This document shows positions 9,221-54,088 of a stretch of 64,000 bases of DNA, one piece after another. The stretch lies in NCBI GenBank assembly GCA_041500865.1, contig JBGQMY010000003.1, forward strand, positions 6,728-70,727. Direction: 5' to 3'. Position 1 is the stretch's first letter, and the number at the start of each line of letters is the position of its first letter. A model generated the notes under the pieces. It searched no databases. It had not been told where the DNA came from and was given only the letters and a program-made list of their open reading frames with translations. A program made the position numbers and the translations under genes. This DNA comes from Candidatus Micrarchaeia archaeon. Its GTDB lineage: Archaea > Micrarchaeota > Micrarchaeia > Anstonellales > J096.

Positions 9221-9396
9221 GTTCCTGAATCGGCTGAAAGGGTTTAAAATGCTTCCATGGCCGCGGCTTTGCCCCTGAACTTCCCTGATTAAGCGACTTT
9301 GGGTCCAGAGCCCATGGCGGCCCTGAAGCAAATGGCGGAAATGCCTTTGTTCCAATAAAAATAGGTATTAAAGCTTTCCGTTGCAATGCTAATAAG

Positions 9397-12779: not shown

Positions 12780-12790
12780 AGATAAATGCC

Positions 12791-13050: not shown

Positions 13051-13076
13051 AATAGGGAAAAGGATGGAAAGCTTAT

Positions 13077-13988
13077 TTAAAGCGCTTTCCCTACCGCATC
13101 CAGGAATTCCCTGATTGGCGCTACGATCTGGGCGTCGATTATGCCAGGCATCCTGCCAACAGCGCTTACAGCCCTATTATATGCGGCTTTCAGCTCATCA
13201 GCCGAGATGCCGGGCACTTTGATAATCGTCTCTTTTTCAGCCGGTTTTCCTGACTGAACATTAGAGGCAAGAAGCGCCTGGATTTTTTCGGTGTCCCCTT
13301 CGGGGACTTCCAACGCCACCCCGAACGCACCGGACGGCCCGAAGTACGCGTAGACGCCCTGCCTGCCGTAGCCGAGGTCGTCGACGACGCGGACCAGAAG
13401 GCCCACATATGAAGAACCATTCAGCCTCCAAAGATATCTTGCATCCGGGCTTTGCGGCACCTTGTCTCCATGCGGAACGCCTGTTTCCTTATGCGGCATG
13501 TACAAGCCATCAGGACCTGGGAATTCTGGAACCGGTATCAGCCTGTCTTTTGAAATGTCCAAAACCATTGAATCTCCGTCTTTCTGGAAATCTTTTGAGG
13601 TTAGACCCAGTGCCACAAGCGCAACGTTCTTTTCGCCCTTATAATCCCCTGTTGTCGGCAAAACTATCCTTGAACCGTCTCCTGCGGAAAAGACTATCTC
13701 CTTTCCCAGTCTAACGCCTGGCTTTTCATAGGCGATTGAGGCGTCAACAGCGAAAGGCGTCATTGGAACCAAGCTTCTCCATGTCGCTCCAACGTTAAGC
13801 GCAACATCCGCTGTGTTATGGGATATGACTAGGCAATTGGTTCCATGCACATTGTTGAATTCCTCAACTAAAGGATGGGCATCAAAAAGCTTTGTTGTTC
13901 CGCTGTTCCTTAGAATCAGTATGTTCTTCTTTTGTCCGTTAGCCTCTAACTTTATCAGTTCCTTTCCAGCAATTTGGATTTGTGACAT
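13077..13988 (-). CDS. DGR target protein (variable protein; uncharacterised family, paralog of 59364..60158)
   Basis: 303 aa; contains the VR at aa ~196-225 (…VRVVDDLGYGRQGVYAYFGPSGAFG…); adjacent to TR-RT on same strand. Confidence 0.75.
   Translation of the reverse strand: MSQIQIAGKELIKLEANGQKKNILILRNSGTTKLFDAHPLVEEFNNVHGTNCLVISHNTADVALNVGATWRSLVPMTPFAVDASIAYEKPGVRLGKEIVFSAGDGSRIVLPTTGDYKGEKNVALVALGLTSKDFQKDGDSMVLDISKDRLIPVPEFPGPDGLYMPHKETGVPHGDKVPQSPDARYLWRLNGSSYVGLLVRVVDDLGYGRQGVYAYFGPSGAFGVALEVPEGDTEKIQALLASNVQSGKPAEKETIIKVPGISADELKAAYNRAVSAVGRMPGIIDAQIVAPIREFLDAVGKAL
13293..13307 (-). promoter_or_regulatory. GC hairpin 7 nt downstream of VR 3' end (IMH-associated stem-loop)
   Basis: gtcccc-ttc-ggggac: 6-bp GC stem, 3-nt loop, positioned as in characterised DGRs. 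Confidence 0.5.
13315..13404 (-). repeat. DGR variable repeat (VR) inside target gene
   Basis: Matches TR except ~20 positions, each where TR coding strand has A (TR AAC -> VR GTC/GAC/CTC/TAC/GGC/TTC codons). Confidence 0.75.
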
Positions 13989-14097: not shown

Positions 14098-14679
14098 ATG
14101 TCCAAACCGATAAAGGGAACACAGACGGAAAAGAACCTTCTCAAGGCATTTGCCGGCGAATCCCAGGCAAGGAACAGGTACACGTTCTTCGCGTCCGAGG
14201 CAAGGAAAGCCAATTATGAGCAGATATCCGCGATATTCCTTGAGACCGCAGAAAACGAGAAGGAGCACGCAAAAGTATTTTTCAAATACCTGGAAGGCGG
14301 GGATACTAAGATAACTGCGACTTATCCTGCAGGAAGGATAGGCACGACCGCGGAGAACCTGCTTGAGGCGGCAGACGGCGAGAAGCTAGAATGGGGCACG
14401 CTATACCCGGAGTTCGAGAAAGTCGCAAGGCAGGAAGGCTTTCCGGACGTTGCAAGCTCGTTCAAGGAGATAGCCGAAGTCGAGATGCACCACGAGCAGA
14501 GGTACAGGGCGCTGCTGGACAACATCAAGACCGGCGCGGTGTTCAAGAGGAAAGGGGACGCCGTGAGGTGGAAGTGCAGGAACTGCGGCTACATCCACGA
14601 AGGGCCCGAGGCGCCAAACCAGTGCCCGGCATGCAAGCATCCGCAGGCGTATTACGAGCTGCTGTGCGACAACTTTTAG
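14098..14679 (+). CDS. rbr: rubrerythrin (ferritin-like diiron domain + C-terminal rubredoxin CxxC…CxxC)
   Basis: [11 protein letters not shown]…EHAK…EMHHEQRY diiron ligands; C-terminal CRNCGY…CPACKHP. Confidence 0.85.
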
Positions 14680-28624: not shown

Positions 28625-29188
28625 TCACAAACCGGCGCATTCCGCAAAATCCAGGATAAACCGCTTATGCCCGATGCCGATTAAGCTTTCAAGCGGCTTT
28701 ATTGCATCCATGATTGCCACAACGCCCCTGTATCCGCGCGTTATCATATGACGCCTGGTTGTTTGCCAGTATTCTCTTCTTGCATTACCTTTGAAATTCG
28801 CGCCTTTGCTTAGCAGCAGCGCGAACGTTCTTGCATTCCCATGCGCAAAGGCCAGCATGAGCGCGGTTATGCCCTGGTCGTTTCTTGCATTGATTTTTGC
28901 GCCCCTTTCCAGCAGCATGGAAACCGTTTCCGTCCTTCCGTTGGATGAGGCGAACATCAGCGGGGTCGTGCCTGCAATGCTCCTTGACTCAATGCCGATT
29001 CCGGCCTTCAGCAGCCTCATTATCCTTTTGGTTTTGCCTGTCCTTGCAGATTCTCCCAGAATGTTTTCCAGCCGCTTTACCTTTGCATTTTTGGATTCCG
29101 CGTTTTCTTGGCCCAGCTTATGGGCGGCAAGAAAAGACGCAATTGACCTTGCTGCGCGGATTGCGCGCCCCGTTGCATTTATCTGCAT
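28625..29188 (-). CDS. ankyrin-repeat protein with C-terminal …FILDFAECAGL tail
   Basis: 187 aa, 3 ANK repeats. Confidence 0.75.
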   Translation of the reverse strand: MQINATGRAIRAARSIASFLAAHKLGQENAESKNAKVKRLENILGESARTGKTKRIMRLLKAGIGIESRSIAGTTPLMFASSNGRTETVSMLLERGAKINARNDQGITALMLAFAHGNARTFALLLSKGANFKGNARREYWQTTRRHMITRGYRGVVAIMDAIKPLESLIGIGHKRFILDFAECAGL

Positions 29189-30173: not shown

Positions 30174-30848
30174 CTACTGGCCTATGCAGCGCCTGAAATC
30201 CAGCAGGAATGCGGCAAATGCCTCTTTGCCAAACGGCTTTTGCAGGGATTCCCAAAAATCCAGGAGCACAATGTTGTTCCTTTTTGTATTTAATTCCGCC
30301 AGGCCGCGGGCATTGCGGCCGTCATCGTTCCTTGTGTCCAAATCAGCGCCATGCATGAGCAGGAGCCTGGCCGTTTCAATGCGGCCATGTATTGAAGTGT
30401 ACATGAGCAGGGTGTATTCTCCATGGCTCCTTGCATTTACGTCAGCCCCTTTTTCCAGCAGGAGCCTGGCGATGGCAGTATTTCCTGAACACGATGCATA
30501 CACGAGCGCGGTATAGCCGCAAATGCCCCTGATGTTCACGTCTGTTCCCTTTTCTATAAGGAATCTGGCTACTTCCGTGCATCCGCAATCCAATGCCCAC
30601 AAGAGAGCGGTTTGGCCGTGCTTGAATAAGATATTTGGGTTTGCGCCGGCTTCAACCAGCCGCGCGGCATTTGCAATATCTTCGGGCGCGTTGTTAAATG
30701 TCAATGCGGCCATTTCCCTGTTTAGGCTTTCAATCCTGACCGCATTGTCTGGCTCAAGCTTGCATTTATCTAATTGAATTGGCATTTTCGCATTTTGCGC
30801 ATGTCCCTGCATCTGCTCCTGGGCCATGGGCTTATTGTGCAAGAACAA
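30174..30848 (-). CDS. ankyrin-repeat protein with C-terminal …FLLDFRRCIGQ tail
   Basis: 224 aa, 4-5 ANK repeats. Confidence 0.75.
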   Translation of the reverse strand: MFLHNKPMAQEQMQGHAQNAKMPIQLDKCKLEPDNAVRIESLNREMAALTFNNAPEDIANAARLVEAGANPNILFKHGQTALLWALDCGCTEVARFLIEKGTDVNIRGICGYTALVYASCSGNTAIARLLLEKGADVNARSHGEYTLLMYTSIHGRIETARLLLMHGADLDTRNDDGRNARGLAELNTKRNNIVLLDFWESLQKPFGKEAFAAFLLDFRRCIGQ

Positions 30849-30901: not shown

Positions 30902-31165
30902 TTACAGGCCTAGCCACTTTTCATATTCTTTATGCGTCCCTACAAAATAGAGCATCTTTGTTTTTGCAGATTCGTTTATCTTGTAGACAAGCCTGTACTG
31001 CCCTATCTCAGAAACATAGAAATCAAGCCCTTGCTTCAGATGCCTGGCTTGGATATCCTGCTGCAATTGGAGGATTTTCTTTGCCACCCTTTTTTTCATG
31101 CTGTTGTCAAGCCTTGAAAAATACCTGTCCCAGTCTGCATGAAAATTAAGGGCATAGGGGCTCAT
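30902..31165 (-). CDS. RelE/ParE-family type II toxin
   Basis: 87 aa; 'YRLVYKINESAKTKMLYFVGTHKEY' typical RelE/ParE core; 4-nt overlap with upstream antitoxin ORF. Confidence 0.65.
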   Translation of the reverse strand: MSPYALNFHADWDRYFSRLDNSMKKRVAKKILQLQQDIQARHLKQGLDFYVSEIGQYRLVYKINESAKTKMLYFVGTHKEYEKWLGL

Positions 31166-31443
31166 TCAAAAGCCTCTGGATATTTCCTGCGCACGTCCGC
31201 CAATGTCAGAACCCTTTTCTTTCCTGATTTTATTTCCTCGTCCATTTTCTGTAATTTTGCGGCTGCAAGCTCATCCAGGATTTCCTCGCTGGATTTCACA
31301 ACCCGGTATTCCTTCCCAAGCTCAAGTATGCCTGCGCGGACTGCCTCCGCCTTTGTCTTGAAGAAACCGGCTTCTACCAGCCTCTTCAGCGTATCCTCCA
31401 CAGAACCGTCCAGGTGTATTAATATGTCTGCCATTTCCACCAC
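31162..31443 (-). CDS. ribbon-helix-helix antitoxin
   Basis: 93 aa; N-terminal RHH-like 'ADILIHLDGSVEDTLKRLVEAGFFKTKAEAVRAGILEL'. Confidence 0.55.
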   Translation of the reverse strand: MVEMADILIHLDGSVEDTLKRLVEAGFFKTKAEAVRAGILELGKEYRVVKSSEEILDELAAAKLQKMDEEIKSGKKRVLTLADVRRKYPEAFE

Positions 31444-31763: not shown

Positions 31764-32273
31764 ATGGAGCTGGATGAGAGCGTTTCAAGGTTTCCCTCAA
31801 TCGGAAGGGAGGGGTTTGAGCTTTTTGCGCTTTGCGCGATTGCGGTCTTTGCGCCGATGCTGGTTACGCAGCAGCTATTGCTTGGAACGATAGTCAACGC
31901 AACGCTGGTATTTTCAGCATTGAGGATAAGCGGGCCAAAGGCATATGTTCCTGCGTTCATACCTTCCATAATCACTGTCATGATGGGGTTAGTGCTTGGC
32001 CAGCCTGCTGCCGCGGTCGCTGCCATGCTGCCGTTCATATGGCTCGGCAACGCAACCCTCATGTTCATAATGAGGAAAGTGAAGGATGCATACTGGAAGG
32101 CCATTGCTGCCGCGGCTGCAACAAAGGCGGCCATGCTTTTCGCGTCCTCGCTAATCCTGGTTTACTTCGCAGGCCTGCCTGCGCAAATCCTTGCGGCGTT
32201 CGGGATGATTCAATTCGTTACTGCAATGCTGGGCGGCGCGCTGGCATACGCAATGATAAAGGCCAAAAATTAA
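31764..32273 (+). CDS. hypothetical small polytopic membrane protein (possibly ECF-type S component)
   Basis: 169 aa, 5-6 hydrophobic helices; preferred over antisense ORF 31649..32134. Confidence 0.45.
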   Translation: MELDESVSRFPSIGREGFELFALCAIAVFAPMLVTQQLLLGTIVNATLVFSALRISGPKAYVPAFIPSIITVMMGLVLGQPAAAVAAMLPFIWLGNATLMFIMRKVKDAYWKAIAAAAATKAAMLFASSLILVYFAGLPAQILAAFGMIQFVTAMLGGALAYAMIKAKN

Positions 32274-32275
32274 GC

Positions 32276-32914
32276 TCAGTTGTTCCTTGCCATGCCGACC
32301 CTTGTGCTGATGCTGCTGGCAACAGAGCGGAACAGGTCAGCCCTTCCGCCTTTGCAAAGCGACGCCACCGACATGAGGGATTCCGCAAGCACGCCTGCCA
32401 TGTATGCGTCAACCGCCTCCTTTTCCAGCCTGGAGGTCTCATTGAAGACATGCGAGTCGTCGCCGTGCTCAACAAGCGCAAGCACTGCCGCCTCTGTGCG
32501 CTCCTGGTATGCCAATATCGGAACGAACTCCTTCCCGTGCGGGTGCGACCCCATTGCAGATGCTGCGGCCTTTTTCAGGCTTATGTTGGACGTCGCCTTT
32601 GCAAGCGTCTTTGCGAAAATAAGGGCCTGCGGCATTTCCCAACAGGATAATGCTGCCGCAATGATCTCCATCCCCGCGTCTCCGGAGGCGAGCATTTTTG
32701 CCAGCAATAGCGGACTATTGAACGGGGTATGTTCGTCTACGGGCCGGCGCATTAAGATTGTCTCGGATGGCCCTTGTACCAGGAAAAACGAACGCTTGGG
32801 CGAGGTATTTTCGTGTACGAACGGGGACTTTATCGCGCCAAATTTGCCAAGCCTTTTCAGCTCTCTCTTCCTTTCATTGGTGGGGATGTCTACAAACGTT
32901 TTGGTTTCTGCCAT
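32276..32914 (-). CDS. hypothetical protein co-directional with and immediately downstream of the hydrogenase-like gene
   Basis: 212 aa; helical, weak resemblance to AlkD-like HEAT proteins only. Confidence 0.4.
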   Translation of the reverse strand: MAETKTFVDIPTNERKRELKRLGKFGAIKSPFVHENTSPKRSFFLVQGPSETILMRRPVDEHTPFNSPLLLAKMLASGDAGMEIIAAALSCWEMPQALIFAKTLAKATSNISLKKAAASAMGSHPHGKEFVPILAYQERTEAAVLALVEHGDDSHVFNETSRLEKEAVDAYMAGVLAESLMSVASLCKGGRADLFRSVASSISTRVGMARNN

Positions 32915-32974
32915 CGGATTTCACCTATATACGCTAATACTTCCAAAGAAGTGTTTAAAAATGTATCATTGTGT

Positions 32975-34066
32975 TCATTCTTTCTTGGCGTTCTGCAGGA
33001 ACGCGAAGCAGCTTGCGCCCTGCAAACTCGTGAAGAAAAGCGGGTCCAGCATCTTTATGGATTTGAGTTCTGCAGGCGTCCTTTCCTTGCTTTTTTCCGC
33101 AGCCTTCCTCATGGCCTCAGCCCTTGTCCTTATTGTGTCAGTGCCGGCTTTCGGGACCGGCTGGCCAGGGCCGCCGACGCACCCATACGTGCACATCATC
33201 ACTTCAATAAAATGGTATGTGGAGCCTGACCTTATCTTCTCAAGCAGCCTTTCCAGCGAAGGAAAGCCATAAACGACGGCTGCGCGCACCTCGTGCTTCC
33301 CTATCTTGAACGTATACTCCCTCATGCTCTCATCATGCCTCAGCTCGAGCAGCTCCTTTTTCTCGCCCATGTATGCCGCAACAGTAGTCAACAGGGCCTC
33401 GGTCACGCCTCCTGTCGCCCCAAAAATGACGCCGTCCTTCGAAGGAACGCTTATCTCCGTTATCGCACTTTCCTTCATGTTGGCGATGTTGAGCCCTTCC
33501 GACCTTGCCCATTCGCCTAGCTCCCTGGTCGTGACAACGTAATCGGTGTATTTCAGGCCGTTCTGCATCTTAAACTGCGCTTCGTGCTTCTTTAATGTGC
33601 ACGGCATTATGCCGACAACGGCTATGTTCTCTGGGGTGCGCCCCCATTCCTTTGAGAAGAACAGCTTTGAGACCGCGCCTGCCATCATCATTGGCGTCAC
33701 GATCTTGGATATCCTTGGAAGCAGCTCCGGGTGCCTTTTTTCCGCATACTCCCTCCAGCCCACGCAGCAGGAGTTGAAGACCGGGAACGCGCCTGCATCC
33801 CCTTTCTCAAGCATGCCGATGAACTCCTTTGCCTCAATGTAGACAATAACGTCCGCGCCGAATGACGTGTCAATGACCTCGTCAAAGCCGAGCGCCCTTA
33901 GGAGGGAGACAAGCTTTCCCGTAAGCTCGGTGCCAGGGGCGAAGCCGAACTCCTCGCCTATGCTGACGCGCATTGCAGGCGCAATCTGCGCAACCAGGTA
34001 CTTGCCTTTCTTTTTCTCCTCCCTAAGAGCCTCAAAAAGCCCCTTGCCCGAAAGGTCCATGCTCAA
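32975..34066 (-). CDS. [FeFe]-hydrogenase-like protein, H-cluster domain only (no ferredoxin-like N-terminal clusters)
   Basis: 363 aa; motifs L1 'FNSCCVGW', L2 'MPCTLKKHE', L3 'EVMMCTYGCVGGPGQP' in canonical order/spacing; N-terminal 'VAQIAPAMRVSIGEEFG'. Confidence 0.75.
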   Translation of the reverse strand: MSMDLSGKGLFEALREEKKKGKYLVAQIAPAMRVSIGEEFGFAPGTELTGKLVSLLRALGFDEVIDTSFGADVIVYIEAKEFIGMLEKGDAGAFPVFNSCCVGWREYAEKRHPELLPRISKIVTPMMMAGAVSKLFFSKEWGRTPENIAVVGIMPCTLKKHEAQFKMQNGLKYTDYVVTTRELGEWARSEGLNIANMKESAITEISVPSKDGVIFGATGGVTEALLTTVAAYMGEKKELLELRHDESMREYTFKIGKHEVRAAVVYGFPSLERLLEKIRSGSTYHFIEVMMCTYGCVGGPGQPVPKAGTDTIRTRAEAMRKAAEKSKERTPAELKSIKMLDPLFFTSLQGASCFAFLQNAKKE

Positions 34067-34077
34067 GTTTCCGCCAT

Positions 34078-34503
34078 ATGCGTTTTAATGCTTTCTGCCA
34101 ATATCAAAGCATGGACGCCGGCGCATTCAAGAGATATATGGAGGAAAGGTTCGGCATAAGGCAAAGCGGAACCGTCTTTGAGGACAGGAACGGCATGGTC
34201 AGGGTGTTCTCAAAACAGATTATGTCATCGCCGATAAGGGGAAGCAGGGGGTTCCCGGCATATGACATGGCGACGACCCATTATTTCTCCACGATGTTCG
34301 GGCATCTTGCCATGCGCAACTTCGTTGAATTGAAAAAGGAGGATGCCGAGGCGCTTGTCTCGGGCAAGGAAATTAAGCTGGGCCTTTCGGACGGAGAATA
34401 CATTGGAAGGCTGAATGAAAGGGGCATATGCACCATTGAAATTGAAAAGGGCATTGCAAGGGCGCACCTTCCCAAGCTGCTGAAGAGAAACAAAAAAGAA
34501 TGA
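34078..34503 (+). CDS. hypothetical protein
   Basis: 141-aa ORF; no confident domain. Confidence 0.3.
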   Translation: MRFNAFCQYQSMDAGAFKRYMEERFGIRQSGTVFEDRNGMVRVFSKQIMSSPIRGSRGFPAYDMATTHYFSTMFGHLAMRNFVELKKEDAEALVSGKEIKLGLSDGEYIGRLNERGICTIEIEKGIARAHLPKLLKRNKKE

Positions 34504-35948: not shown

Positions 35949-38900
35949 ATGGCAGCCCTCAAAAACAAGCTACGAAGAGCAGTCGTCTACACGATGATTG
36001 CCGCTAACGCCGGTAATGCGAGCCCGGCATGGCTGCCGCGACATGAAAGATTGGGTGAAACAATGGCTGAAACAACCGTGAAGGGCGTTGAAAAGAAGGA
36101 CGAGGATGCCAGGCTCAAGAAGGGCGCGAAAATGCTTTATGACACGTACAAGAAGCTGTATCCCAAGGTCGATGAGAAACAATACTACATGTACCTTACG
36201 GCTTTCGGCAAAAAGCTGAACATATACAACGTGGAGGCCTTTAACACAAGCATCGGGGACGTAAGGAACATAGGGAATGGCCAGATGACCTTCATGGCGA
36301 TAAAAGAACTTGAAAGGCAGCGCTTGGAGAAGAAGGAGGCTGAAAGCTCCGGAAAGAGCTTTGTCCAGATGCAGAAGGAAAAAGAAACAAGGAGAGCGGA
36401 AACTGCCGGGCAAAGGGCAAAGAAAAGGGAGGCAGTCAAAGAAGAAGTTAGTAAGGTGATTACAGGCGGCGAGATAACGCCAGAGACCAAGCCTGCAAAG
36501 GTAACGGCTCCGGCCGTCATTGCCGGAAAAGGCATATTCGGGCAGACGCAAGGCGTTTTCCAGACGGAACAGAACGTCCTCAAAGGAAGCGACGGCAACG
36601 CAATGCTTGACAGCAGGGGCGCGGTCCAATACGCATATCCTTCAAACATGGCGTCGCTGCAGTCGCTTGGAGTGGTAGATTACAGCGCGCTGAAGGAAGC
36701 CACGGGAAATGATTTCATCGACCAGCTCAGGAAGAGCGAGGCAAAGGGCGGAACGGTCGAAGAAAGGGGCCAGAGGAGCTTCGAGACAACGGCAAGGATG
36801 ATAGGCGCGATAGTGCTTTACAACTCATTCGCATTCGCGGACAAGGCCGGGACAGTCAAGAAAAACCAGCTGAAGGATTATTGCGGCGACGACGGATACG
36901 CGGAAAACCTCGGGCGCGTGCTTTCGGCAAAGCCGCTGAGGAACCAGGGGCAGTTCATAGGCGAAGTGACGTCATTCATAGGGGCATACGTAAAGAACGG
37001 AAAGCTGACCGAGATAAACGGGGAAGGCAAGGACGAGAAGGGCAAGTCCAACGTGGGCATGTATGTCTATTCAATAGCCGCAATCGGCTCCGCATACACG
37101 CAGCGCGTGATAGGCGAAACGTTCGAGAGCCAGATGTCGTACCTCCAGGAAAGGAAGAAGGCCGCGGAGACGCAGAAGGCGGGGCTGGAAGGCCAGGTCA
37201 AGGAAGAGGCAAAGAGGCCCGCTGCCGCGCAGAGAGCCAAAAAATTGGCAGGTGAGGACGCGGAGACGCAGCTGAAAAAGGCTGATGCAGAAATACAGAG
37301 CATAACCGACATGACGGACAGCATCAGCAGCTACAGCTGGTACTACAAGAAGCCCATGACCGTGTCCGAGCTTTACAAAAGGCACAGGGACGAGGACAGG
37401 AAAAGGCTGACAAGCCTGAACGACTATGTCGGGGGCCTAAACATACCGCAAAGGATAAAGAGGCCGTTCCAGGACGCGCTTGAAAACGAAAAGACGCAGA
37501 TGGTGCTGCTCCAGATGGCCATAGAGGAGGCAAACCCCGAAGGGAGGATGACGCTTGCGGAGCTCAGGGAAAAAGGCAACATCTGGAGAAACTACAAGAC
37601 GCTTGTCACGCACAAACTCAAGGAGATAGCGACTTACAAGCTCAACAAGGGCCAAAGACTGATTTACGTGATGCTCAACAACAGGTACGGGGACCTCGTT
37701 GATGCCATAGAGGCAAAGCTGGGGCCTGAGGAGACGGCCAGGTTCATAGTGGACCTTGCAGACCCGTCGCAGGCAAAGAAGCAGGGCATGAGCTACGACG
37801 ACTACATAAGGGCCACGCTCAAGGATAAATGGATAAATGGAGGCATTTCCCCTGTAAAGGATGCAAAGGGCAGCATCCTAAAGGACCCAAGGGGCAACGT
37901 CATAAAAAGAGGCAGAAGCTGCCTTGATGATTACAGGAGCGGGTTCAACAGCAGCTACGGGCAAAAATCCGGCAGCCTGGACAGCCAAAGGTTTCCGGAC
38001 AAGCTGGTTGCGTCGCTTGTCATAGACCACAGGATAACGCAGGCGGAGCTGGACTTCCTGATTGCGAACAGGGGCGACATGAAGCCGGAGGAGGCGCTCA
38101 ACGCATTCAACGCCAAGCTCAACGACGCAAAGAAGAATTTCAACGAGAAGTCATATTCCACGGTAAAGCGCATGGTGGACGAGGCGCAGGGTCTCATAGG
38201 GTTTGACAAGGCGTATTATGAGGAGTTCAGGGACATAATACTTGTGAGGCTGGCCTTGATAGACATGACAAACCGGGCAACCCAGCGCACGTCAAGCCTT
38301 ACGCTGGACGGAATAATTGAAGGCAACCTGTCCGGGGTCAGGGCATTCGGGGCAAAGACGGCGGCGCTCGTTGCCAAGGTTGACGAGATTGCGCCTTTGG
38401 AGAAGATGCCGGACAACATAACCGGCGACGCCAAAGGGGTGCTGCTCCAGAGGGCGCGCACGCAGAGAATCAACGCGTACATAGAGCTTTTCAACAACGA
38501 GTTCTTCACGCTGAACGATGAAAGATATACCAAGATAACGGTGCAGAGGCTGAACGACTTCAAGCTCAGGCTTGACACGTGGGAGGAGGTGCTCAAAACG
38601 ATGAAGGAGGACGACCCGTACCACATCGCGAAGGACACTGTGCTCAGGGCCGGATGCATCCGGACGCTTGAGTCCATGAAGCAAAGGCTTGACGCAATCA
38701 TGAAGGAGGTCGGCGACAAAGGCATTGACCTGAGCGAAATAAAGGACCCTGGCGACAGGTTCCTGCTGGACCTTGTCATAAACGGAAGGGTCATCATCGC
38801 AGGAATCAACGGGTTCAGGTATTACGACAACGTCGCAACCGTGGACAGGCAGGGCTTCATACCCGTGATATTCTACTTCCTGAACAACATACAGCTCAAC

Positions 38901-41399
38901 GCCGAGGAGAACAGGTCGTACCTTGACCATGTGCTCAAAATGCCGGAAGGCAATGGCATAGACGTGTGGGAAGCGCCTGAAACAATAGCGCAGCAGCTGG
39001 AGACGGAAAGGAGCAACCGCATAGAAAACATGAGGTCGGAAGGCTGGAAGACGATAATGGGAAGCAGCGACAAGGCAACCGAGATGTACAGGATGCTGGG
39101 GTTCCAGCAGGCGTATGACTATTACTCCTCCTACCTGAAAAAGAACAAGGACAGCACATACGATTACAGCGACGCATCAGCCCTTGACGCTGAGCTGGAG
39201 CGGATTTTCGGAAAGGACATGCTCGACAACGTGAACCTGTCTGTAAAGTTCGCCATGAACATGTACACACCCAATAGGAATGTCTCCAAATACGACCTTG
39301 ACAGGCTGTCTACCCGGTTCAAGATGGTCCTGGCATCCAACCTTGTCCTGGAGGCGCCGTACTACGACTTGAGCAACACGGCAAAGCAGGGCTCCAAGAG
39401 CATTCCCGTTTCCGTGACAAAGAAGGACGGGGCAAAGGAGAGTGTCAATATCCAGTACCACGACAACATGGTGCAGAGATGGATAGAGGGCTACCGCAGC
39501 GCAAGGATTGGCGGGATATCCGTTGACAAGGACATGATTGAGGGCTTCATAGGCAGCATAGCGCAATGCAAATGGGCAGCGACGCTCAAGCCTGGCCAGT
39601 ATTCCATAACGTTCGAGAACGACCTGCACGAATTGAGGTCTTTCGACGTCACGGTAAGCAAGGTCGGTGGCGACATGAAAGGCGCGGCAGCCAACATAAA
39701 GATAGAGCCGATGTCCACGCTTGAGGACCTGCTGAAGACGCCCGGCGGATTCAGGGCGTACGAGGGCGACAGGATAGTCATGAGGAACAAGGCCGACAAC
39801 AGCGTGGCGCTGGCAACAAAGTCCAATTTCGGGGTTTTGATGGTGGCGAGCGCAAAGGTCGGCGGAAGGGGATTCGAGAATGCCGTAAACCAGGTGTCGC
39901 TGATGAACGACAACCTCGTGCCTGACGGAAGGCTTGAGGAGGGAACGCAGCCCGCATCGTTCTGGACAGGGCTGTACTTTGCCGTTACGAAGAAGGAGGC
40001 CATGTCATTCATCTCAAACAGGCAGATGGCGCTGTACGACATCGCGGCGACCTTCAGGCCAATCCGCGACATCAGGCCCGAGGTGCCTGTCAAGGTGACA
40101 AAAGTCCTTGGCAAGGAAACGCTGGACTTTGCGGCGCTCATAGGCGCCCCAAGCGATGCCGGAATATCCACCACGTGGGTGGATGCCGGCGGAGCGGTGC
40201 ACAACTGGTTCTCGGAGATGGCTGAAGGAAAACTGACAATAGACGAGAATGGGAACCTTTCTGCGCAGATAATGTCAAGGGCGACAGGAACGCAGCTCAT
40301 GCTCGGCGAGCTCAAAACGGAGCTTGACAGGCTTGGCTACACCGACGGCACGCCGCAAAGGGCCATCATACTGCAGCACCTGTTCGGCACAGGGCCGTAC
40401 AACGACAACATGGTAATCGAGGTCGTGGCGACCCAGCAGGGCAACAGGATATTCATAGTGACTAAAGGCGCGCAGAACATGGCACAGGCGGAGATAGGCA
40501 TTGAAATAGACAGGCAGACCATATCGGAAATGAGGTACGGATACCTCACCGACAGGCTAAGGCTCTTCATAGCGACGCAGACGCAGCTGAAGCTCGGGAA
40601 CGAGATAATAAACGTAAGGGTTGAGCTTGGGAAGACCGCAGCCGATTTCCAAAGCATGAAGAGGTTCAAGGACATCAAGACTGCGATAGTGAACGCATAC
40701 CTCAGCTCGAACATATTCGGCGCGGGATGGAGCACGGTGCTTTCTGAAAGCGGGAATGCGGTGACAGTGCAGCCGTACCTTGTGGCTTACCTGGAGCACA
40801 TGATGCCCAACGACCTGCAGAGGATAATCGAGACCGGCGGCGGAGTTTCCGGAATCCTGGAGACCGCAAATGCGGAATTCGGCGCCACCCCGCAGCTGAC
40901 AGGCATAACAGTCGGGCAAGGGGGGGACTGGATGGTAACCCCGAGCCTGAACCTGTACCAGAGATGGTTCACGGGAAGGCATTTTGACCTGTACCAGAGC
41001 GCTTCGGTGCACTACAGGTTCCCCACAGCCGGTCTCGTGGACAGGGTAAGCAAGGGGCATCTTGGGGGAACCTGGGGGGGTGGGGGGAACCTCGGATTCG
41101 ACTACATAATAGACAGGAACTGGAGGATGGGCCTTGGCGGAGGGTATGAATACGCCCCAATCTCCATACAGGCGCCTGTAAGCGTGTTCAGCTCCAGCGC
41201 CAGCATATCGTTCAGGAACAGGCTTTCGCTTGAGGTGATGGCCAACTACCAGCTGGACAAGGACTGGGGAACGGAGAACCTGCCTGTGCTGGGCCGCGGA
41301 GTCGTCGCAGGCAAGGCCGCGCTTGTCTACAACATCGGAAGGCTTGACTTCACCCCAAAGGAAAAGGGAACAGCAGCGAAGAAGGGCGGTAAGAAATGA
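35949..41399 (+). CDS. giant protein (1816 aa) of unknown function; Gly-rich C-terminal region
   Basis: Single uninterrupted ORF; possible RR-containing N-terminal signal (KLRRAVVYTMIAANAGNA); C-terminal 'GGTWGGGGNLGFDYIIDRNWRMGLGGGYEY'; stop overlaps start of next gene. Confidence 0.7.
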   Translation: MAALKNKLRRAVVYTMIAANAGNASPAWLPRHERLGETMAETTVKGVEKKDEDARLKKGAKMLYDTYKKLYPKVDEKQYYMYLTAFGKKLNIYNVEAFNTSIGDVRNIGNGQMTFMAIKELERQRLEKKEAESSGKSFVQMQKEKETRRAETAGQRAKKREAVKEEVSKVITGGEITPETKPAKVTAPAVIAGKGIFGQTQGVFQTEQNVLKGSDGNAMLDSRGAVQYAYPSNMASLQSLGVVDYSALKEATGNDFIDQLRKSEAKGGTVEERGQRSFETTARMIGAIVLYNSFAFADKAGTVKKNQLKDYCGDDGYAENLGRVLSAKPLRNQGQFIGEVTSFIGAYVKNGKLTEINGEGKDEKGKSNVGMYVYSIAAIGSAYTQRVIGETFESQMSYLQERKKAAETQKAGLEGQVKEEAKRPAAAQRAKKLAGEDAETQLKKADAEIQSITDMTDSISSYSWYYKKPMTVSELYKRHRDEDRKRLTSLNDYVGGLNIPQRIKRPFQDALENEKTQMVLLQMAIEEANPEGRMTLAELREKGNIWRNYKTLVTHKLKEIATYKLNKGQRLIYVMLNNRYGDLVDAIEAKLGPEETARFIVDLADPSQAKKQGMSYDDYIRATLKDKWINGGISPVKDAKGSILKDPRGNVIKRGRSCLDDYRSGFNSSYGQKSGSLDSQRFPDKLVASLVIDHRITQAELDFLIANRGDMKPEEALNAFNAKLNDAKKNFNEKSYSTVKRMVDEAQGLIGFDKAYYEEFRDIILVRLALIDMTNRATQRTSSLTLDGIIEGNLSGVRAFGAKTAALVAKVDEIAPLEKMPDNITGDAKGVLLQRARTQRINAYIELFNNEFFTLNDERYTKITVQRLNDFKLRLDTWEEVLKTMKEDDPYHIAKDTVLRAGCIRTLESMKQRLDAIMKEVGDKGIDLSEIKDPGDRFLLDLVINGRVIIAGINGFRYYDNVATVDRQGFIPVIFYFLNNIQLNAEENRSYLDHVLKMPEGNGIDVWEAPETIAQQLETERSNRIENMRSEGWKTIMGSSDKATEMYRMLGFQQAYDYYSSYLKKNKDSTYDYSDASALDAELERIFGKDMLDNVNLSVKFAMNMYTPNRNVSKYDLDRLSTRFKMVLASNLVLEAPYYDLSNTAKQGSKSIPVSVTKKDGAKESVNIQYHDNMVQRWIEGYRSARIGGISVDKDMIEGFIGSIAQCKWAATLKPGQYSITFENDLHELRSFDVTVSKVGGDMKGAAANIKIEPMSTLEDLLKTPGGFRAYEGDRIVMRNKADNSVALATKSNFGVLMVASAKVGGRGFENAVNQVSLMNDNLVPDGRLEEGTQPASFWTGLYFAVTKKEAMSFISNRQMALYDIAATFRPIRDIRPEVPVKVTKVLGKETLDFAALIGAPSDAGISTTWVDAGGAVHNWFSEMAEGKLTIDENGNLSAQIMSRATGTQLMLGELKTELDRLGYTDGTPQRAIILQHLFGTGPYNDNMVIEVVATQQGNRIFIVTKGAQNMAQAEIGIEIDRQTISEMRYGYLTDRLRLFIATQTQLKLGNEIINVRVELGKTAADFQSMKRFKDIKTAIVNAYLSSNIFGAGWSTVLSESGNAVTVQPYLVAYLEHMMPNDLQRIIETGGGVSGILETANAEFGATPQLTGITVGQGGDWMVTPSLNLYQRWFTGRHFDLYQSASVHYRFPTAGLVDRVSKGHLGGTWGGGGNLGFDYIIDRNWRMGLGGGYEYAPISIQAPVSVFSSSASISFRNRLSLEVMANYQLDKDWGTENLPVLGRGVVAGKAALVYNIGRLDFTPKEKGTAAKKGGKK

Positions 41400-43003
41400 G
41401 AATGCTGAAACTGGCGTTTGCGATTTGCCTGCTCGCCGGCGTTTCGCTGGCGCTGCAGTGGGGGGGAAGCGCGACCAGCAACGTAAGGTACGACGGCGGA
41501 AGCATAGCGACTTCCTGCATTGGCGAGCCAAGGCAGGACCCGTTCGACCTTTACGCCAACATACTGCATACGCTAACGGTCAACGCAAGCCTGACGCAGA
41601 ACGGCGTTGAGCCGGCCGAGTTTTCCTCAGGGCCGGCAAACCTGGACATAAGGGTGACGACGAACACCAGCATAGGCGCCATACTCGCGTCCTCATCGCT
41701 TAATTTCAACCAGAATGCGCAGCCTTCTCCTGCCGCAGCGAACCTTGCGTTTGACAATGCGGAATACAGCTACATAAGCAGCAAGTATCCGGTCTGCATA
41801 AACGAGGACCCCTCAAGGCCCGACGACAGGGGCGTGCATTACCTCAACTACATTTACGGCAGCGCAACGTGCAACCATGCAATGAGTGCCGCGGACGCAG
41901 TAACCGTCAATGTCGGATACAAGCCGTGCATGGCGGGGCCTGTCAGCGGCATGGGCAAGGGATACATGTACTGCACCGGCGGAACGCTCAAGGTCAATGG
42001 GCTGAACGCAGGCACGTTTTCATCCAGCCAGCAGTCATTCAGCACGACGGTAAATCTCGCAACAGGCACGACATCCATTCCCGTGTCAGTCACATACCAG
42101 TGCTACTTCGTTTTGGAAAAATACCTCAACACCGGGGACGTCCAGCCGATTGAACACCTGATATACCAGATGCCTGGCGGAGTGCCGATAACGCAGACTG
42201 TCAACATACCCATAAACAGGGTCAATCCGCCGCAAATCAACCTCGTGCCGTTCATAACGCTGAACAACACCAACTATTATACCGGGACGCATGTAACCGT
42301 AAACAAGGTCAATACGAAATTCGACATATCGTTCTTTGTCAACAGGACGGACAATCTCGTGCTGATAGAGACGCCATACCTGAACTGGTCAATAACGTCA
42401 ACGCCGCCCGAGCTAATCACCAGGACATACAGGGACTTCAAGCTCGTCCCTCCGCTCACTGTAGGGACGCCGCACCATCTGGTTCCGTCAGGCACAACGC
42501 CGCCCATAACAATAACGGTCTGCAGGCCAGGATTTGACACTGACACTATCACGCTGAACATCAACCAATGGAGGTCAATAATAGAGAGCAGCTACGACGA
42601 CAACAGCATAACAATAACGTTTGACTGCAGCAGCCTGGACAATCCCATGTGCACGTTCAACCCAAGCACCCTGATAACGTATCCTGGCCAGACGAAGATG
42701 ACGAACATGAGCTGCTACGACAAGAGGACTATGGAGCCCATGGACTGCCCCTCATACAGCGATGCGTCAATAACCCACGCAAACGGGGAATTTTCGAGCC
42801 ATTACCTACCCCTGGCATGGACGTATGACATCAGCGAGAATGCGACCAACCTGGTCAATGTAACCGCAATAGGAGGCACGAACCCTGACGAGGGGACTTA
42901 CAGCGACACTGTCACGGCGACGTTCCCTGGCAGCTACGTCCAGCCGTTCAGTTGCAAATTCAACCTTGAATGGGGAAGGCCCGACTGCAGGTATTACATG
43001 TAG
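41396..43003 (+). CDS. secreted Cys-rich, N-glycosylation-sequon-rich protein, translationally coupled to the giant ORF
   Basis: Signal peptide MRMLKLAFAICLLAGVSLALQW; ~20 Cys; >15 NxS/T sequons; ATGA overlap with 35949..41399. Confidence 0.7.
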   Translation: MRMLKLAFAICLLAGVSLALQWGGSATSNVRYDGGSIATSCIGEPRQDPFDLYANILHTLTVNASLTQNGVEPAEFSSGPANLDIRVTTNTSIGAILASSSLNFNQNAQPSPAAANLAFDNAEYSYISSKYPVCINEDPSRPDDRGVHYLNYIYGSATCNHAMSAADAVTVNVGYKPCMAGPVSGMGKGYMYCTGGTLKVNGLNAGTFSSSQQSFSTTVNLATGTTSIPVSVTYQCYFVLEKYLNTGDVQPIEHLIYQMPGGVPITQTVNIPINRVNPPQINLVPFITLNNTNYYTGTHVTVNKVNTKFDISFFVNRTDNLVLIETPYLNWSITSTPPELITRTYRDFKLVPPLTVGTPHHLVPSGTTPPITITVCRPGFDTDTITLNINQWRSIIESSYDDNSITITFDCSSLDNPMCTFNPSTLITYPGQTKMTNMSCYDKRTMEPMDCPSYSDASITHANGEFSSHYLPLAWTYDISENATNLVNVTAIGGTNPDEGTYSDTVTATFPGSYVQPFSCKFNLEWGRPDCRYYM

Positions 43004-46908: not shown

Positions 46909-47670
46909 CTATTCCTGAAGCCAGATGGGCTTTCCGTCCTTCATATCTATGGACGCGGCCTGGCTTGCAAAAAGATTAATCATGTCCGGGCTGTTGATTT
47001 GCCTGGCATAGCCAAGCGCATCCATGCCTGCCTTGTCTATTGCCTTGGCATCAGCGCCCTTGCTTACCAGGAAAGCGCATGTTTCGCTGAATCCCCTCAT
47101 TGCTGCCCAGATGAGCGCGGTCCTGCCCCATACAGTATCACTTGCGTTTATGCTTGCGCCATTTTCAATAAGCAGGCTGCATACGCCAATCCTGCCCAGG
47201 TATGCCGCCCACATGAGCGGGGTCCTGCCTGACTTGTCTGTTGCATTGACGCTTGCGCCTTTCTTTATCAGGAGTGCACAGGTGCTGGCTCTCCCACGGT
47301 ATGCTGATTCCATGAGCGGGGTGATGCCATTCACGTCAGTCGTTTCCATGTCCGCGCCATTTTCCAGCAGGAATGCGCATATCCTTTTGTTGCCTGCGCC
47401 CGCAGACCCCATGAGCGCGGTTTTGCCGCATTCGCTCTTTGCATTGACGTCCGCGCCAGCCTTGATGAGCCGCAGGATTTCTTCTGCATTTTTCGAGCCC
47501 TGCCATTGGAATTTTGCGTTCCATGCCGCATTGAGGAGTTTTTTGTCCAGTTCCTCCTGCAGGTCAGTGCGGAGCTTGCTTGGTTTGTCTGGCTCAGGCT
47601 TCATCTTTTTGTCAAAAGGCGGCTTTCTGTTAGTTGCACTGCGCCTTTGTTTCTCCGTTTTCTGCGCCAT
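46909..47670 (-). CDS. ankyrin-repeat protein
   Basis: 253 aa, about 5 ANK repeats; first of three tandem ANK genes with duplicated promoter regions. Confidence 0.75.
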   Translation of the reverse strand: MAQKTEKQRRSATNRKPPFDKKMKPEPDKPSKLRTDLQEELDKKLLNAAWNAKFQWQGSKNAEEILRLIKAGADVNAKSECGKTALMGSAGAGNKRICAFLLENGADMETTDVNGITPLMESAYRGRASTCALLIKKGASVNATDKSGRTPLMWAAYLGRIGVCSLLIENGASINASDTVWGRTALIWAAMRGFSETCAFLVSKGADAKAIDKAGMDALGYARQINSPDMINLFASQAASIDMKDGKPIWLQE

Positions 47671-47702: not shown

Positions 47703-48452
47703 TTATGCGGGGCCCGGCGACTGCCGCAAGCTGGCAATATAGGGCTTTCTTTTGGCCGGACCCATGGACGCGGCGCGCCTAAGCAGGTCAACCGTGCCTG
47801 TATGCTCGTTTTCCTGTGCCCATACGTATGCGGTCATGCCCCCATTGTCCTTTATGCTGATGTCTGCGCCTTTTTCAAGCAGCAGCATTGCCGTTTCCCT
47901 GTATCCGATTTCAGCGGCATATGTAAGCGCGGTCCTGCCGAAGTTGTCCCTTGCATCCACGTTTGCGCCTTTCCCAATCAGCAATGCGCAAATGCCGGCC
48001 TGTCCGCCAAATGCCGCATGCATCAGTGCAGTCCTTTCAAGGCTGTCTGTTGCGTCCACGATTGCGCCTTTCCCAATCAGCAGGGCGCATATGGCCATCA
48101 GCCCTGACGATGCGGCGTGCATGAGGGCAGTTCCGCCGACGTTGTCCTTTGCATCGATGGCTGCCGCGTTGTCAATCAGCATTATGCATGTCTCGGCATG
48201 CCTCCGCTGTGCGGAAAGCATCAGCGCGGTCATGCCCCTGCCGTCTACTGCATCTGCCTGCGCGCCCTGTTCCAGCAGCATTTTGGCCTTGCCTGTCTCG
48301 CCGTCCATGGCCGCCTGCAGAAGTTCCAAGCCCAGCCTTTTCTGCCGCCTGTTGGCGGGCCTCTTGCACCCATCCGCCTCTGGCTTGAAAAATGCCCTTT
48401 CCGGCTTTTTTTCGCTTTTTGGGATTCCGAATTTACCCAATGTGAGGAGCAT
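47703..48452 (-). CDS. ankyrin-repeat protein
   Basis: 249 aa, about 5 ANK repeats. Confidence 0.75.
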   Translation of the reverse strand: MLLTLGKFGIPKSEKKPERAFFKPEADGCKRPANRRQKRLGLELLQAAMDGETGKAKMLLEQGAQADAVDGRGMTALMLSAQRRHAETCIMLIDNAAAIDAKDNVGGTALMHAASSGLMAICALLIGKGAIVDATDSLERTALMHAAFGGQAGICALLIGKGANVDARDNFGRTALTYAAEIGYRETAMLLLEKGADISIKDNGGMTAYVWAQENEHTGTVDLLRRAASMGPAKRKPYIASLRQSPGPA

Positions 48453-48533: not shown

Positions 48534-49607
48534 TTATCTGGTTGCCCACTTATAGATTTCAACGCCCAGGAGAAACTGAGGCGTTGCGCCGCTGCTATCT
48601 ATCGCGTTTTCGTCCGCCCCATTTTTCACAAGGAATTTGTATACTTTCCTGTTCATTCCAAAAACGGTTTCTGCGGCATAGTGCAGTGCTGTCCTGCCTT
48701 CCTTGTCGCCCATATCAATAAACTTTTTCACATTCCCGCCGGCTTCAGCATATTTTTGTATGAGGAGGTTGCAGATTAAAGTCCTGCCTGGCAACGCAGG
48801 AATGGCTGCGGCATGGTGCAGGGATGTCCGGCCGTCATTGCTTTTTGCGGCAATCAGCTTCTTTATGTCCCCTCCGGATTTTGCGTATTCTTTTATAAGA
48901 AACGCGCAGGTTTTTATGCTTCCGTAAGCTGCGGCATACATGAGCGGGGTGTTGCCGCAGTTGTCCGCTGCGTTCAGGTCGGCGCCATTTTCAACCAGAA
49001 TCTCGCAGGTTTCTGTGTACCCGTAGCATGTTGATGCTGCAGTTATGAGCGCGGTTTCACCGTATTCGTTTCTCGCATTCACGTCAGCGCCGTTATCAAT
49101 CAGCAGATTGCATGTCTCGGGATTACGGGCTGCAGCATATATGAGCGGAGTGTTGCCGAACTTGTCCCTTGCGTCCACATCCGCCCCGGCTTTCAGAAAA
49201 GTCTCAATCCCTGCAGAGTCACAAAAAAATGTGTTGGTTATAGCCTCATCAAGAAGCATGCTGTCCAACCGCGCCTGTTCCATCTTGGAAATCGCCGGTT
49301 TCGCATCTGCTGCGGCCTTCCTTTGGCTTTTGTTTTTCTTGGAATAGCAATTCAGGACTTTTATGCAGTTTGCCAATTTTCTCTGCGCCATTTCCAAGCT
49401 AATGTCATTCCAGCAGCCTCCGCACGCCAGCGCGGCTGCGAGAATTCCGGGCATTACCCACGCCGGAATGCGGATTCCGATTTTTTTATTGGCGGCTGTT
49501 GGGTTATCGGCTGCGTCCTTTGCCTTTCTCGTTATCATGCATATTTGATTTTCGCTGTTTTTTGCGCCATCCGCTGCCTTTGCCAAAAACGGCTTTTCTG
49601 CTGCCAT
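48534..49607 (-). CDS. ankyrin-repeat protein
   Basis: 357 aa, about 7 ANK repeats (…GNTPLMYAAAYGSIKTCAFLI…). Confidence 0.75.
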   Translation of the reverse strand: MAAEKPFLAKAADGAKNSENQICMITRKAKDAADNPTAANKKIGIRIPAWVMPGILAAALACGGCWNDISLEMAQRKLANCIKVLNCYSKKNKSQRKAAADAKPAISKMEQARLDSMLLDEAITNTFFCDSAGIETFLKAGADVDARDKFGNTPLIYAAARNPETCNLLIDNGADVNARNEYGETALITAASTCYGYTETCEILVENGADLNAADNCGNTPLMYAAAYGSIKTCAFLIKEYAKSGGDIKKLIAAKSNDGRTSLHHAAAIPALPGRTLICNLLIQKYAEAGGNVKKFIDMGDKEGRTALHYAAETVFGMNRKVYKFLVKNGADENAIDSSGATPQFLLGVEIYKWATR

Positions 49608-53584: not shown

Positions 53585-54088
53585 ATGCAACCAAGAACCA
53601 TGCCGATAACAACAAAGGCAGGGGACGACGGAAAGACCGGCACGCTCTCCGGCAAAAGGGTCAGCAAGTGCAGCAGCGAGATTGAGCTTTTCGGCGCCAT
53701 TGACGGGCTCATTGCGATGCTGGGCTATGCGGCCGGCGAGCTCGGAAACGATGAGCTGCTCGCCATCCAAACCGAGATGGAGAGGATTTTCCGCAATGTG
53801 GCAAGGCTTGACGACATAGGCTCATCGTACGTAAAAAGCATTGAGGGAAAAATCGCGCAGAAGGAGAAGGCAGCAAAAAGCATAAGGGGCTTTGTGAGGC
53901 CCATGGGCAAGAGCGCGCTTGCGCACCTTTGCAGGGAATGCGCAAGAAACGCGGAAAGGAAGGCTGTCTGCGCATACGAGAAAAAGGGGATGGCGAACAT
54001 AACCGTTTATTTGAACAGGCTCTCAGACTACATATTCCTGATAGCGTGCGAAGAGGCAATAAAGAGGAACGAGCTCAGCTTTTTTTAG
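53585..54088 (+). CDS. ATP:cob(I)alamin adenosyltransferase, PduO type
   Basis: 'ITTKAGDDGKTGTLSGKRVSK…EIELFGAIDGLIAMLGYA' N-terminal signature. Confidence 0.75.
   Translation: MQPRTMPITTKAGDDGKTGTLSGKRVSKCSSEIELFGAIDGLIAMLGYAAGELGNDELLAIQTEMERIFRNVARLDDIGSSYVKSIEGKIAQKEKAAKSIRGFVRPMGKSALAHLCRECARNAERKAVCAYEKKGMANITVYLNRLSDYIFLIACEEAIKRNELSFF

Follow-up and report, generated by a model that had tools for sequence, protein, structure and literature searches.

The 64-kb window analysed here (the whole stretch of 64,000 nucleotides, taken from contig JBGQMY010000003.1 of a Candidatus Micrarchaeia archaeon) contains a gene, hydA, whose product is very probably a cytoplasmic, monomeric [FeFe] hydrogenase that holds the H-cluster alone, is of the DPANN minimal group A1 type and, by analogy with characterized homologues, serves fermentative H2 evolution. 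The host is a tiny symbiotic archaeon of the Micrarchaeota, and the archaeal neighbours of hydA include the genes for the RFC small subunit and aIF2-gamma. Family, active-site residues, predicted fold and host relatives all point to a stand-alone archaeal [FeFe] hydrogenase with the H-cluster only, as had been proposed in a sequence-only reading of the same DNA.

Family assignment and fold of HydA

The hidden Markov model of Pfam Fe_hyd_lg_C (PF02906) matches HydA along its entire length (model positions 1-245 of 245) with E 1.3e-70 and 238 bits against a cut-off of 22. Among the NCBIfam models, HydA group A6 (293.8 bits) and group A (274.9 bits) score far above group B1 (132.4 bits); the scores fall under the full-length cut-offs only because HydA lacks the N-terminal Fe-S domains that these models include. 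A phmmer search of the PDB gave the HydA1 subunit of Thermoanaerobacter kivui (8a6t_A) as the best match, with E 1e-61. Further top matches are the HydA2 subunit of hydrogen-dependent CO2 reductase, CpI, CbA5H, HydAB of D. desulfuricans and HydA1 of Chlamydomonas reinhardtii.

The structure prediction advised in the sequence-only reading bears out the H-domain fold. An AlphaFold2 (AF2) model built from 59 relatives has a predicted local distance difference test score (pLDDT) of 90.6 and a predicted TM-score (pTM) of 0.90. In Foldseek it matches 8a6t, 6ttl and CpI (the HydA1, CbA5H and CpI structures) with E 4e-33 and a query TM-score (TMq) of 0.85-0.87 over about 350-360 columns. HydA thus modelled consists of the full H-domain fold and a C-terminal tail that resembles the hydrogenase small subunit.

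Database searches found about 100 proteins of 330-390 residues that carry Fe_hyd_lg_C alone; those with a named source come from metagenome-assembled genomes (MAGs) of Micrarchaeota, Anstonellales, Bilamarchaeaceae and Iainarchaeum. The nearest named relatives of HydA, with 71-72% identity, are from Micrarchaeota and Micrarchaeia MAGs. In a rough neighbour-joining tree HydA falls into a tight sub-clade within a large clade of Micrarchaeota and Iainarchaeota, apart from the bacterial M3 enzymes including CpI.

HydA-like proteins of about 380 residues also occur in MAGs of Bacilli/Firmicutes from gut and other sources, for example 'Candidatus Enterosoma' (loci L054, L056-L058, L060, L061, L063-L066, L068 and L069). 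They have the NSCC[IV]GW and MPCx[LI]KKxE motifs as in the DPANN family, are 33-37% identical, and form a separate clade in the rough neighbour-joining tree. None of them is adjoined by the membrane-protein gene that is discussed below.

The open reading frame (ORF) at 32975..34066 on the minus strand, with 363 codons from a TTG, is present exactly as given earlier. Its extent and frame stand, and its start is to be revised: translation likely begins at the ATG at 34060, two codons 3' of the TTG at 34066, yielding a protein two residues shorter (361 residues), because the N-termini of homologues and the public 361-residue annotation of the identical sequence begin there. The residue numbers used here follow the 363-residue (TTG-start) numbering. 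NCBI and JGI already contain the identical protein, annotated as 'iron only hydrogenase large subunit-like protein', and the window sequence is identical to contig JBGOZM010000005.1 of NCBI assembly GCA_041480205.1. An antisense ORF of 330 codons (32280-33272, plus strand) and an ORF of 272 codons (31832-32650, plus strand) run across real genes and were regarded as spurious.

H-cluster motifs and pocket residues

The register of the H-cluster residues was fixed by profile alignment to CpI and then tabulated over 59 relatives with 36-90% identity to HydA. The conserved N-terminal stretch VAQIAPAMRVSIGEEFG is read at residues 24-40, and the three Cys motifs of the H-cluster are all in place: FNSCCVGW (L1), MPCTLKKHE (L2) and EVMMCTYGCVGGPGQP (L3). 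Agreement of this extent lies well outside what chance would give. In L1, C100 corresponds to the proton-relay residue C299 of CpI and C101 to C300, a ligand of the [4Fe-4S] cubane of the H-cluster ([4Fe-4S]H). In L2, M154, C156, K159 and E162 are equivalent to CpI M353, C355 (a cluster ligand), K358 (which contacts a CN ligand) and E361. In L3, M290, C292 and C296 are equivalent to M497, C499 and C503, the last being the Cys that bridges to the [2Fe] subsite.

These residues hardly vary. S99, C100, C101, G103 and W104 of L1, the M, P, C, K and E of L2, and E288, M290, C292, C296, G298, G299, P300, G301 and Q302 of L3 are identical in 59/59 relatives. Thus all cubane ligands and the bridging Cys (C101, C156, C292 and C296) and the proton relay C100 are invariant, as are the pocket residues M154, K159, E162, F215, M290, P30 and P125, the counterparts of CpI M353, K358, E361, F417, M497, P231 and P324.

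Two positions beside the cluster depart from the canonical motifs. Against the pattern TSCCPxW, L1 of HydA has N for T and V for P, both typical of the family: position 102, which corresponds to P301 of CpI and is Val in HydA, is I in 43 relatives, V in 13 and T in 3. L3 reads GGPGQP in place of the canonical GGGQP (CpI G507 to Pro), and this Pro is kept in 59/59 relatives. As judged from the alignment, NSCC[I/V]GW and GGPGQP are signatures of the family and not quirks of the window copy.

The proton pathway of CpI (C299-E279-S319-E282-R286) is retained at four of its five residues, namely C100, E78, S120 and E81; the surface-end residue R286 is replaced by Met85. Over the relatives, E78 is kept in 57/59 and S120 is Ser or Thr in 54/59, and the positions of E81 and Met85 are both variable.

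The sequence-only reading had also claimed that an accessory-cluster domain is absent, and this is confirmed. The H-domain is preceded by only 21 residues, no further Pfam domain is present, and the protein has six Cys in total: the five of the H-cluster and one near the C-terminus, the first being residue 100. Therefore an accessory cluster cannot be held.

Proteins of the Nar1 type are marked by a Cys cluster at the N-terminus and by changes in L1 and L3. We considered a Nar1/NARF-like identity, which the sequence-only reading had listed as the outcome that would speak against it, and rejected it: the L1 Cys residues and the pocket are intact, no N-terminal Cys site is present, and the top matches are all true hydrogenases.

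Relation to known [FeFe] hydrogenases

Greening et al. (Cell 2024; PMC11216029) described archaeal group A1 [FeFe] hydrogenases from three DPANN phyla, with a mean length of 363 residues. These enzymes are encoded by Micrarchaeota, Iainarchaeota or Nanoarchaeota, were modelled as monomers with a solvent-exposed H-cluster and without accessory clusters, and 'differ in their proton-transferring residues' (PMC11216029). Two of them, 'Mu' (Micrarchaeota UBA95) and 'Ia' (Ca. Iainarchaeum andersonii), evolved H2 once they had been produced in E. coli and given synthetic [2Fe]adt, Mu at about half the CrHydA1 rate in lysates (PMC11216029). The predicted role of group A1 is ferredoxin-coupled fermentative H2 production in hosts that are predicted to be obligate fermenters without respiratory reductases (PMC11216029). 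In the naming of that work 'minimal' denotes group A1, and 'ultraminimal' is kept for the group E enzymes of about 286 residues (PMC11216029). The novelty claimed for HydA in the sequence-only reading therefore needs adjustment: the archaeal stand-alone type is correct, but the class is not a little-characterized 'ultraminimal' one, since it was published in 2024 as 'minimal' and has two active members.

HydA is an ordinary new copy within this published DPANN minimal group A1 family. It shares with the family the H-cluster-only domain followed by the small-subunit-like tail, the length (361 or 363 residues against the mean of 363), the Micrarchaeota host, a single hydA per locus, a linked gene of the hyd6TM type and the lack of HydEFG genes nearby. 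It differs in detail only: it lies in a sub-clade of 68-90% identity, has two extra neighbours encoding proteins of 130 and 212 residues, and carries Val at the position of CpI P301 and Met at that of Q325.

Among other characterized enzymes, the M1-type group A hydrogenase HydA1 of C. reinhardtii (CrHydA1; 3lx4, 6gm5) is likewise H-cluster-only and fed directly by ferredoxin, with the same L1-L3 ligands (phmmer E about 1e-52). CrHydA1 is about 100 residues longer through insertions, which split the alignment into two stretches, and its L1 and L3 are the canonical TSCCP and GGGQP. HydEFG matures CrHydA1. The M3-type enzymes CpI and T. kivui HydA1 (4xdc, 8a6t) superpose with HydA over the full H-domain at 32-37% identity, with conserved H-cluster contacts. 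In contrast to HydA, they have an N-terminal extension of about 200 residues whose three or four accessory Fe-S clusters relay electrons, and R286 in the outer proton path of CpI is Met in HydA.

The group E enzymes (for example Fm, from Ca. Forterrea multitransposorum) are also monomeric H-cluster-only proteins of DPANN archaea, and the same membrane-protein family adjoins such proteins in our metagenome sample. They are shorter (about 260-290 residues) and have TSPC, GPCxxKKxE and FCxGGCxxGPG motifs, hence no relay Cys of the C299 type. Membership of HydA in this 'ultraminimal' group was rejected, because HydA is only 21% identical to such proteins and has other motifs.

Maturation and proposed function

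The sequence-only reading had noted that no HydE, HydF or HydG genes are nearby, and the scans agree. A six-frame scan of the whole 64 kb detected no credible radical-SAM ORF with a CX3CX2C motif; no HydF-type GTPase is present in the window, where the sole GTPase is aIF2-gamma. When the 64 kb was scanned for motifs in six frames and the larger or Cys-rich ORFs were compared with Pfam, neither a ferredoxin nor a 2-oxoacid:ferredoxin oxidoreductase was found. Similarly, HydEFG genes do not stand beside hydA in any of the related loci sampled. Two ORFs with CX3CX2C were considered as maturase candidates and discarded: the one beside hydA in locus L033 has no family match, and the one in L138 is neither HydE nor HydG but a 'radical SAM mobile pair protein B'. 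The published survey found a full HydEFG set in only 5/130 hydA-bearing archaeal genomes and proposed an unknown alternative maturation route (PMC11216029). Absence of HydEFG is typical of archaeal hydA genomes and does not exclude membership in the group.

Homologue biochemistry and the established chemistry of group A enzymes suggest the following course of events. The cubane would be inserted by the generic Fe-S assembly system, and the [2Fe] subsite would be installed as well. Because an accessory-cluster relay is absent, reduced ferredoxin would dock straight onto the solvent-exposed [4Fe-4S]H. Electrons would then pass to the [2Fe] subsite, protons would arrive via E81, S120, E78 and C100, and H2 would be released. 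The ferredoxin would be re-oxidized in this way while host-derived carbon is fermented, so that reducing power is disposed of.

Several points weigh against this reading. Activity of this enzyme class in a native host is unobserved, as Greening et al. concede (PMC11216029). Clade membership with Mu and Ia was judged by taxonomy, length, architecture and gene context, not by direct alignment. With no HydEFG, ferredoxin or oxidoreductase genes in the 64 kb, the electron donor and maturation in vivo remain assumptions. Finally, family-specific substitutions stand beside the cluster (P301 to V/I, S357 to L, G507 to P and Q325 to M in CpI numbering).

A membrane-protein gene linked to hydA

A gene for a small membrane protein of 169 residues lies convergent to hydA (Table 1). 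It most likely corresponds to the 'hyd6TM' of Greening et al., with which it was matched by description only. Judged by gene neighbourhoods, it is the gene most consistently linked to hydA and the best candidate for a functional partner.

The linkage was examined in both directions. In the forward test, 64 species-representative loci were retrieved with the HydA family, 52 of them archaeal and 12 bacterial (Bacilli). A homologue of the membrane protein is encoded within 1 kb of hydA in 27/52 archaeal loci and in 0/12 bacterial ones; in 23/52 archaeal loci the membrane gene is not nearby. In the reverse test, metagenome contigs were scanned with a hand-made degenerate DNA pattern, back-translated from the family signature. 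A gene with Fe_hyd_lg_C adjoins 21/46 of the membrane-family loci found, many of the contigs being too short to tell; five well-flanked loci are without hydA.

Hydrogenases adjoining the membrane family are of three kinds: minimal enzymes like that of the window, M3-type proteins of 593-655 residues with 2Fe-2S and 4Fe-4S domains, and proteins of about 250-330 residues. The fourteen proteins of the third kind match Fe_hyd_lg_C (Pfam E about 1e-36), have the TSPC, GPCxxKKxE and FCxGGCxxGPG motifs and 21% identity to HydA, and by these motifs are most likely the published group E ultraminimal hydrogenases. In their loci (L082-L154, for example L105:3331-4627, L154:9284-10580 and L110:2476-3989) the membrane gene is mostly located immediately upstream on the same strand, and several of the gene pairs overlap. 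The published description ties the hyd6TM-type membrane protein to group A only (PMC11216029).

The membrane family is large, with 439 clusters of relatives of 170-200 residues in an exhaustive search. G41, N45, N96, K121, Q150 and T153 are invariant; most of them are polar and located within helices. The AlphaFold model of the window protein is of moderate confidence (pLDDT 71). In Foldseek the S-component family of energy-coupling factor (ECF) transporters ranks top by probability, at a level that is not significant, and the best structural matches are capture proteins for vitamins and cofactors. Pfam ECF_trnsprt (PF12822) is the sole family matched by more than one member, with sub-threshold hits in 5/105 relatives (best E 0.003). 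The window protein itself has no Pfam or NCBIfam match even at E 10, and a profile search finds no S-component in the PDB.

The predicted fold therefore resembles that of ECF S-components and solitary S-like transporters (RibU, BioY, ThiT and BtuM), sequence similarity to them being not significant, and we do not assign the protein to the ECF family. In contrast to ECF transporters, no EcfA or EcfT genes are nearby: the window encodes no ABC ATPase, and the 87 loci searched for an ECF ATPase or T component contain only three ABC ORFs, none of them adjacent. Solitary S-like transporters exist, such as BtuM and some BioY proteins, so the missing EcfA and EcfT do not exclude a role in uptake.

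Two functional interpretations follow from this neighbourhood. In the broader one, HydA works with the convergent S-component-like protein, either being docked by it at the membrane or relying on it for uptake of a compound needed by the hydrogenase or its maturation. The genomic link that holds in both directions argues for it, as do the three hydrogenase architectures, the same-strand overlap with genes of the enzymes of about 260 residues, and the invariant polar residues within the helices of the membrane protein. On the other hand, the two genes of the window are convergent and not co-transcribed, with the 212-codon gene between them; the archaeal loci without a nearby membrane gene and the well-flanked membrane-family loci without hydA break the association; group A1 enzymes were modelled as monomers (PMC11216029); and the fold of the membrane protein comes from a model of pLDDT 71 and a Foldseek match below significance. 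We consider this interpretation rather unlikely as an account of the window. Such a membrane-associated unit, in which HydA would be no free soluble monomer, would be compatible with HydA being a fermentative H2-evolving enzyme.

The narrower interpretation is that the membrane protein is a solitary ECF-S-like uptake protein supplying a need of the hydrogenase in archaea without HydEFG, in the extreme case a precursor of [2Fe] or the subsite itself, scavenged from the host or the environment. Such a role would be a long shot. We keep it because three unrelated hydrogenase architectures adjoin the family, the gene overlap at the enzymes of about 260 residues looks like an operon, invariant polar residues lie within the membrane, and the structural matches are cofactor-capture proteins.

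Other explanations for HydA

A fermentative, H2-evolving HydA has to be weighed against a protein that never receives its [2Fe] subsite for want of HydEFG and acts as a plain [4Fe-4S] protein, with a redox or scaffold role as in Nar1/NARF. The lack of maturase genes in the 64 kb, the rarity of the full set in archaeal hydA genomes and the unobserved native activity (PMC11216029) would fit such a protein. The conservation pattern argues otherwise, as C100, K159, M154, M290, F215, P125 and E78 are invariant or nearly so over the 59 relatives. These residues contact only the [2Fe] subsite or deliver protons, so their conservation is hard to explain other than by selection for catalysis. Moreover, the N-terminal Cys cluster and the altered L1 and L3 of Nar1-type proteins are both absent from HydA, and homologues take up the cofactor and evolve H2 (PMC11216029). 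We regard this explanation as quite improbable.

Sensory hydrogenases of groups C and D replace the proton-relay Cys of the C299 type, and HydA retains its equivalent. That HydA is mainly an H2 uptake enzyme or an H2 sensor is the least likely explanation, with very little in its favour beyond the bidirectionality of [FeFe] hydrogenases in vitro and a shift in catalytic bias that the R286 to Met replacement could cause: HydA lacks accessory clusters as well as any PAS or signalling domain, the homologues put to the test produced H2 readily, and obligate fermentation without respiratory reductases is predicted for the hosts (PMC11216029).

Neighbouring genes and other features of the window

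The sequence-only reading had suggested the ORF at 32276-32914 as a possible partner of hydA. It is a real gene, with an AGGTGA ribosome-binding site (RBS), an upstream A/T-rich box and protein conservation of 75% and 56% with two homologues, but the partnership does not hold. The 212-residue protein forms only 3 clusters among 5.8e9 proteins, occurs in three close lineages, and has no Pfam or NCBIfam match even at E 10. Where present, the gene always separates hydA from the membrane gene. L001-L004, where HydA is 90% identical, lack it, as do two lineages with HydA identity of 71-72% (L005/L007 and L006). Hence this narrow-clade orphan is an insertion specific to its lineage and no general partner of hydA.

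The 130-codon gene divergent from hydA shares with it an intergenic region of 50 bp. In L001 and L005 the corresponding position is occupied by genes of 129 codons, whose products are 92% and 58% identical to that of the window gene; neither Pfam nor NCBIfam assigns the window product to a family. The gene was found only in loci with HydA identity of at least 68%.

Further away, the window contains a canonical diversity-generating retroelement (DGR) at 11676-13988. Its template repeat (TR) and variable repeat (VR) align over 83 bases with 17 mismatches, all of them at template A (17/24 A) and 0 at other bases. The 303-codon ORF that carries the variable repeat has no family match, and the GC content of the region is low (0.43).

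The ORF of 1,816 codons is syntenic, located upstream of the genes for RFC, TRAM and hydA in the narrow clade. Its product is only 29% identical to the counterpart in the lineage with 90%-identical HydA, and it therefore evolves very fast; it is possibly a surface or host-interaction protein. ORFs of about 1,600 codons beside hydA in other Micrarchaeota were considered as homologues, and BLAST found no similarity.

The HigB-type toxin and its partner, a toxin-antitoxin pair better conserved than the genes around it, are 91-94% identical to the pair in L005, where HydA identity is 71%, and are absent from L001, a distribution which suggests that the cassette moves between genomes. At least seven ankyrin-repeat proteins are encoded in the 64 kb, a density unusual among archaea, and in a DPANN symbiont these proteins may serve interaction with the host. 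The rubrerythrin is consistent with peroxide defence in an anaerobe.

Table 1. Location of hydA, its H-cluster motifs, its neighbours and other features of the window. Residue numbers refer to the 363-residue form of HydA.
Feature	Position	Strand	Remarks
hydA, putative H-cluster-only monomeric group A [FeFe] hydrogenase	32975..34060	-	361 aa from ATG; evidence: ORF, Pfam, NCBIfam, PDB, AF2
L1 motif FNSCCVGW	33755..33778	-	residues 97-104; sequence and CpI profile alignment
L2 motif MPCTLKKHE	33581..33607	-	residues 154-162; sequence and CpI profile alignment
L3 motif EVMMCTYGCVGGPGQP	33158..33205	-	residues 288-303; sequence and CpI profile alignment
212-aa orphan gene between hydA and the membrane gene	32276..32914	-	own AGGTGA RBS; homologues
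169-aa membrane protein	31764..32273	+	5-6 helices; convergent to hydA; 701 bp from hydA 3' end
130-aa gene divergent from hydA	34111..34503	+	longest ORF starts at 34078; conserved in narrow clade
1,816-aa ORF	35949-41399	+	no Pfam match on record
535-aa ORF, 14 Cys	41396-43003	+	overlaps end of 1,816-aa ORF; no family match
HigB/RelE-type toxin	30902-31165	-	Pfam HigB_toxin, E 1e-6
93-aa toxin partner	31162-31443	-	upstream, overlapping the toxin gene
DGR reverse transcriptase, 367 aa	11676-12779	-	Pfam RVT_1, E 3e-17
DGR template repeat	12815-12897	-	just 5' of the reverse transcriptase
DGR variable repeat	13321-13403	-	C-terminal third of 303-aa ORF 13077-13988
Rubrerythrin with rubredoxin-like C-terminal domain	14098-14679	+	
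FMN-dependent dehydrogenase-like protein	8192-9355	-	
Cobalamin adenosyltransferase-family protein	53585-54088	+	
Ankyrin-repeat proteins, at least 7	1858-2994 (-), 3673-5031 (+), 28625-29188 (-), 30174-30848 (-), 46909-47670 (-), 47703-48452 (-), 48534-49607 (-)		

Implications

With HydA, the published family of very small H2 catalysts, which are of biotechnology interest, gains a further intact sequence, and the present analysis documents two cluster-side signatures of that family, NSCC[I/V]GW and GGPGQP. The only lead beyond published work is the S-component-like fold predicted for the membrane protein, together with the adjacency of its gene to three [FeFe]-hydrogenase architectures. If functional, the link between this gene and hydA bears directly on how archaea without HydEFG build the H-cluster. 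Supply of [2Fe] through the membrane protein, if true, would explain the maturase-free maturation of [FeFe] hydrogenases in DPANN archaea.

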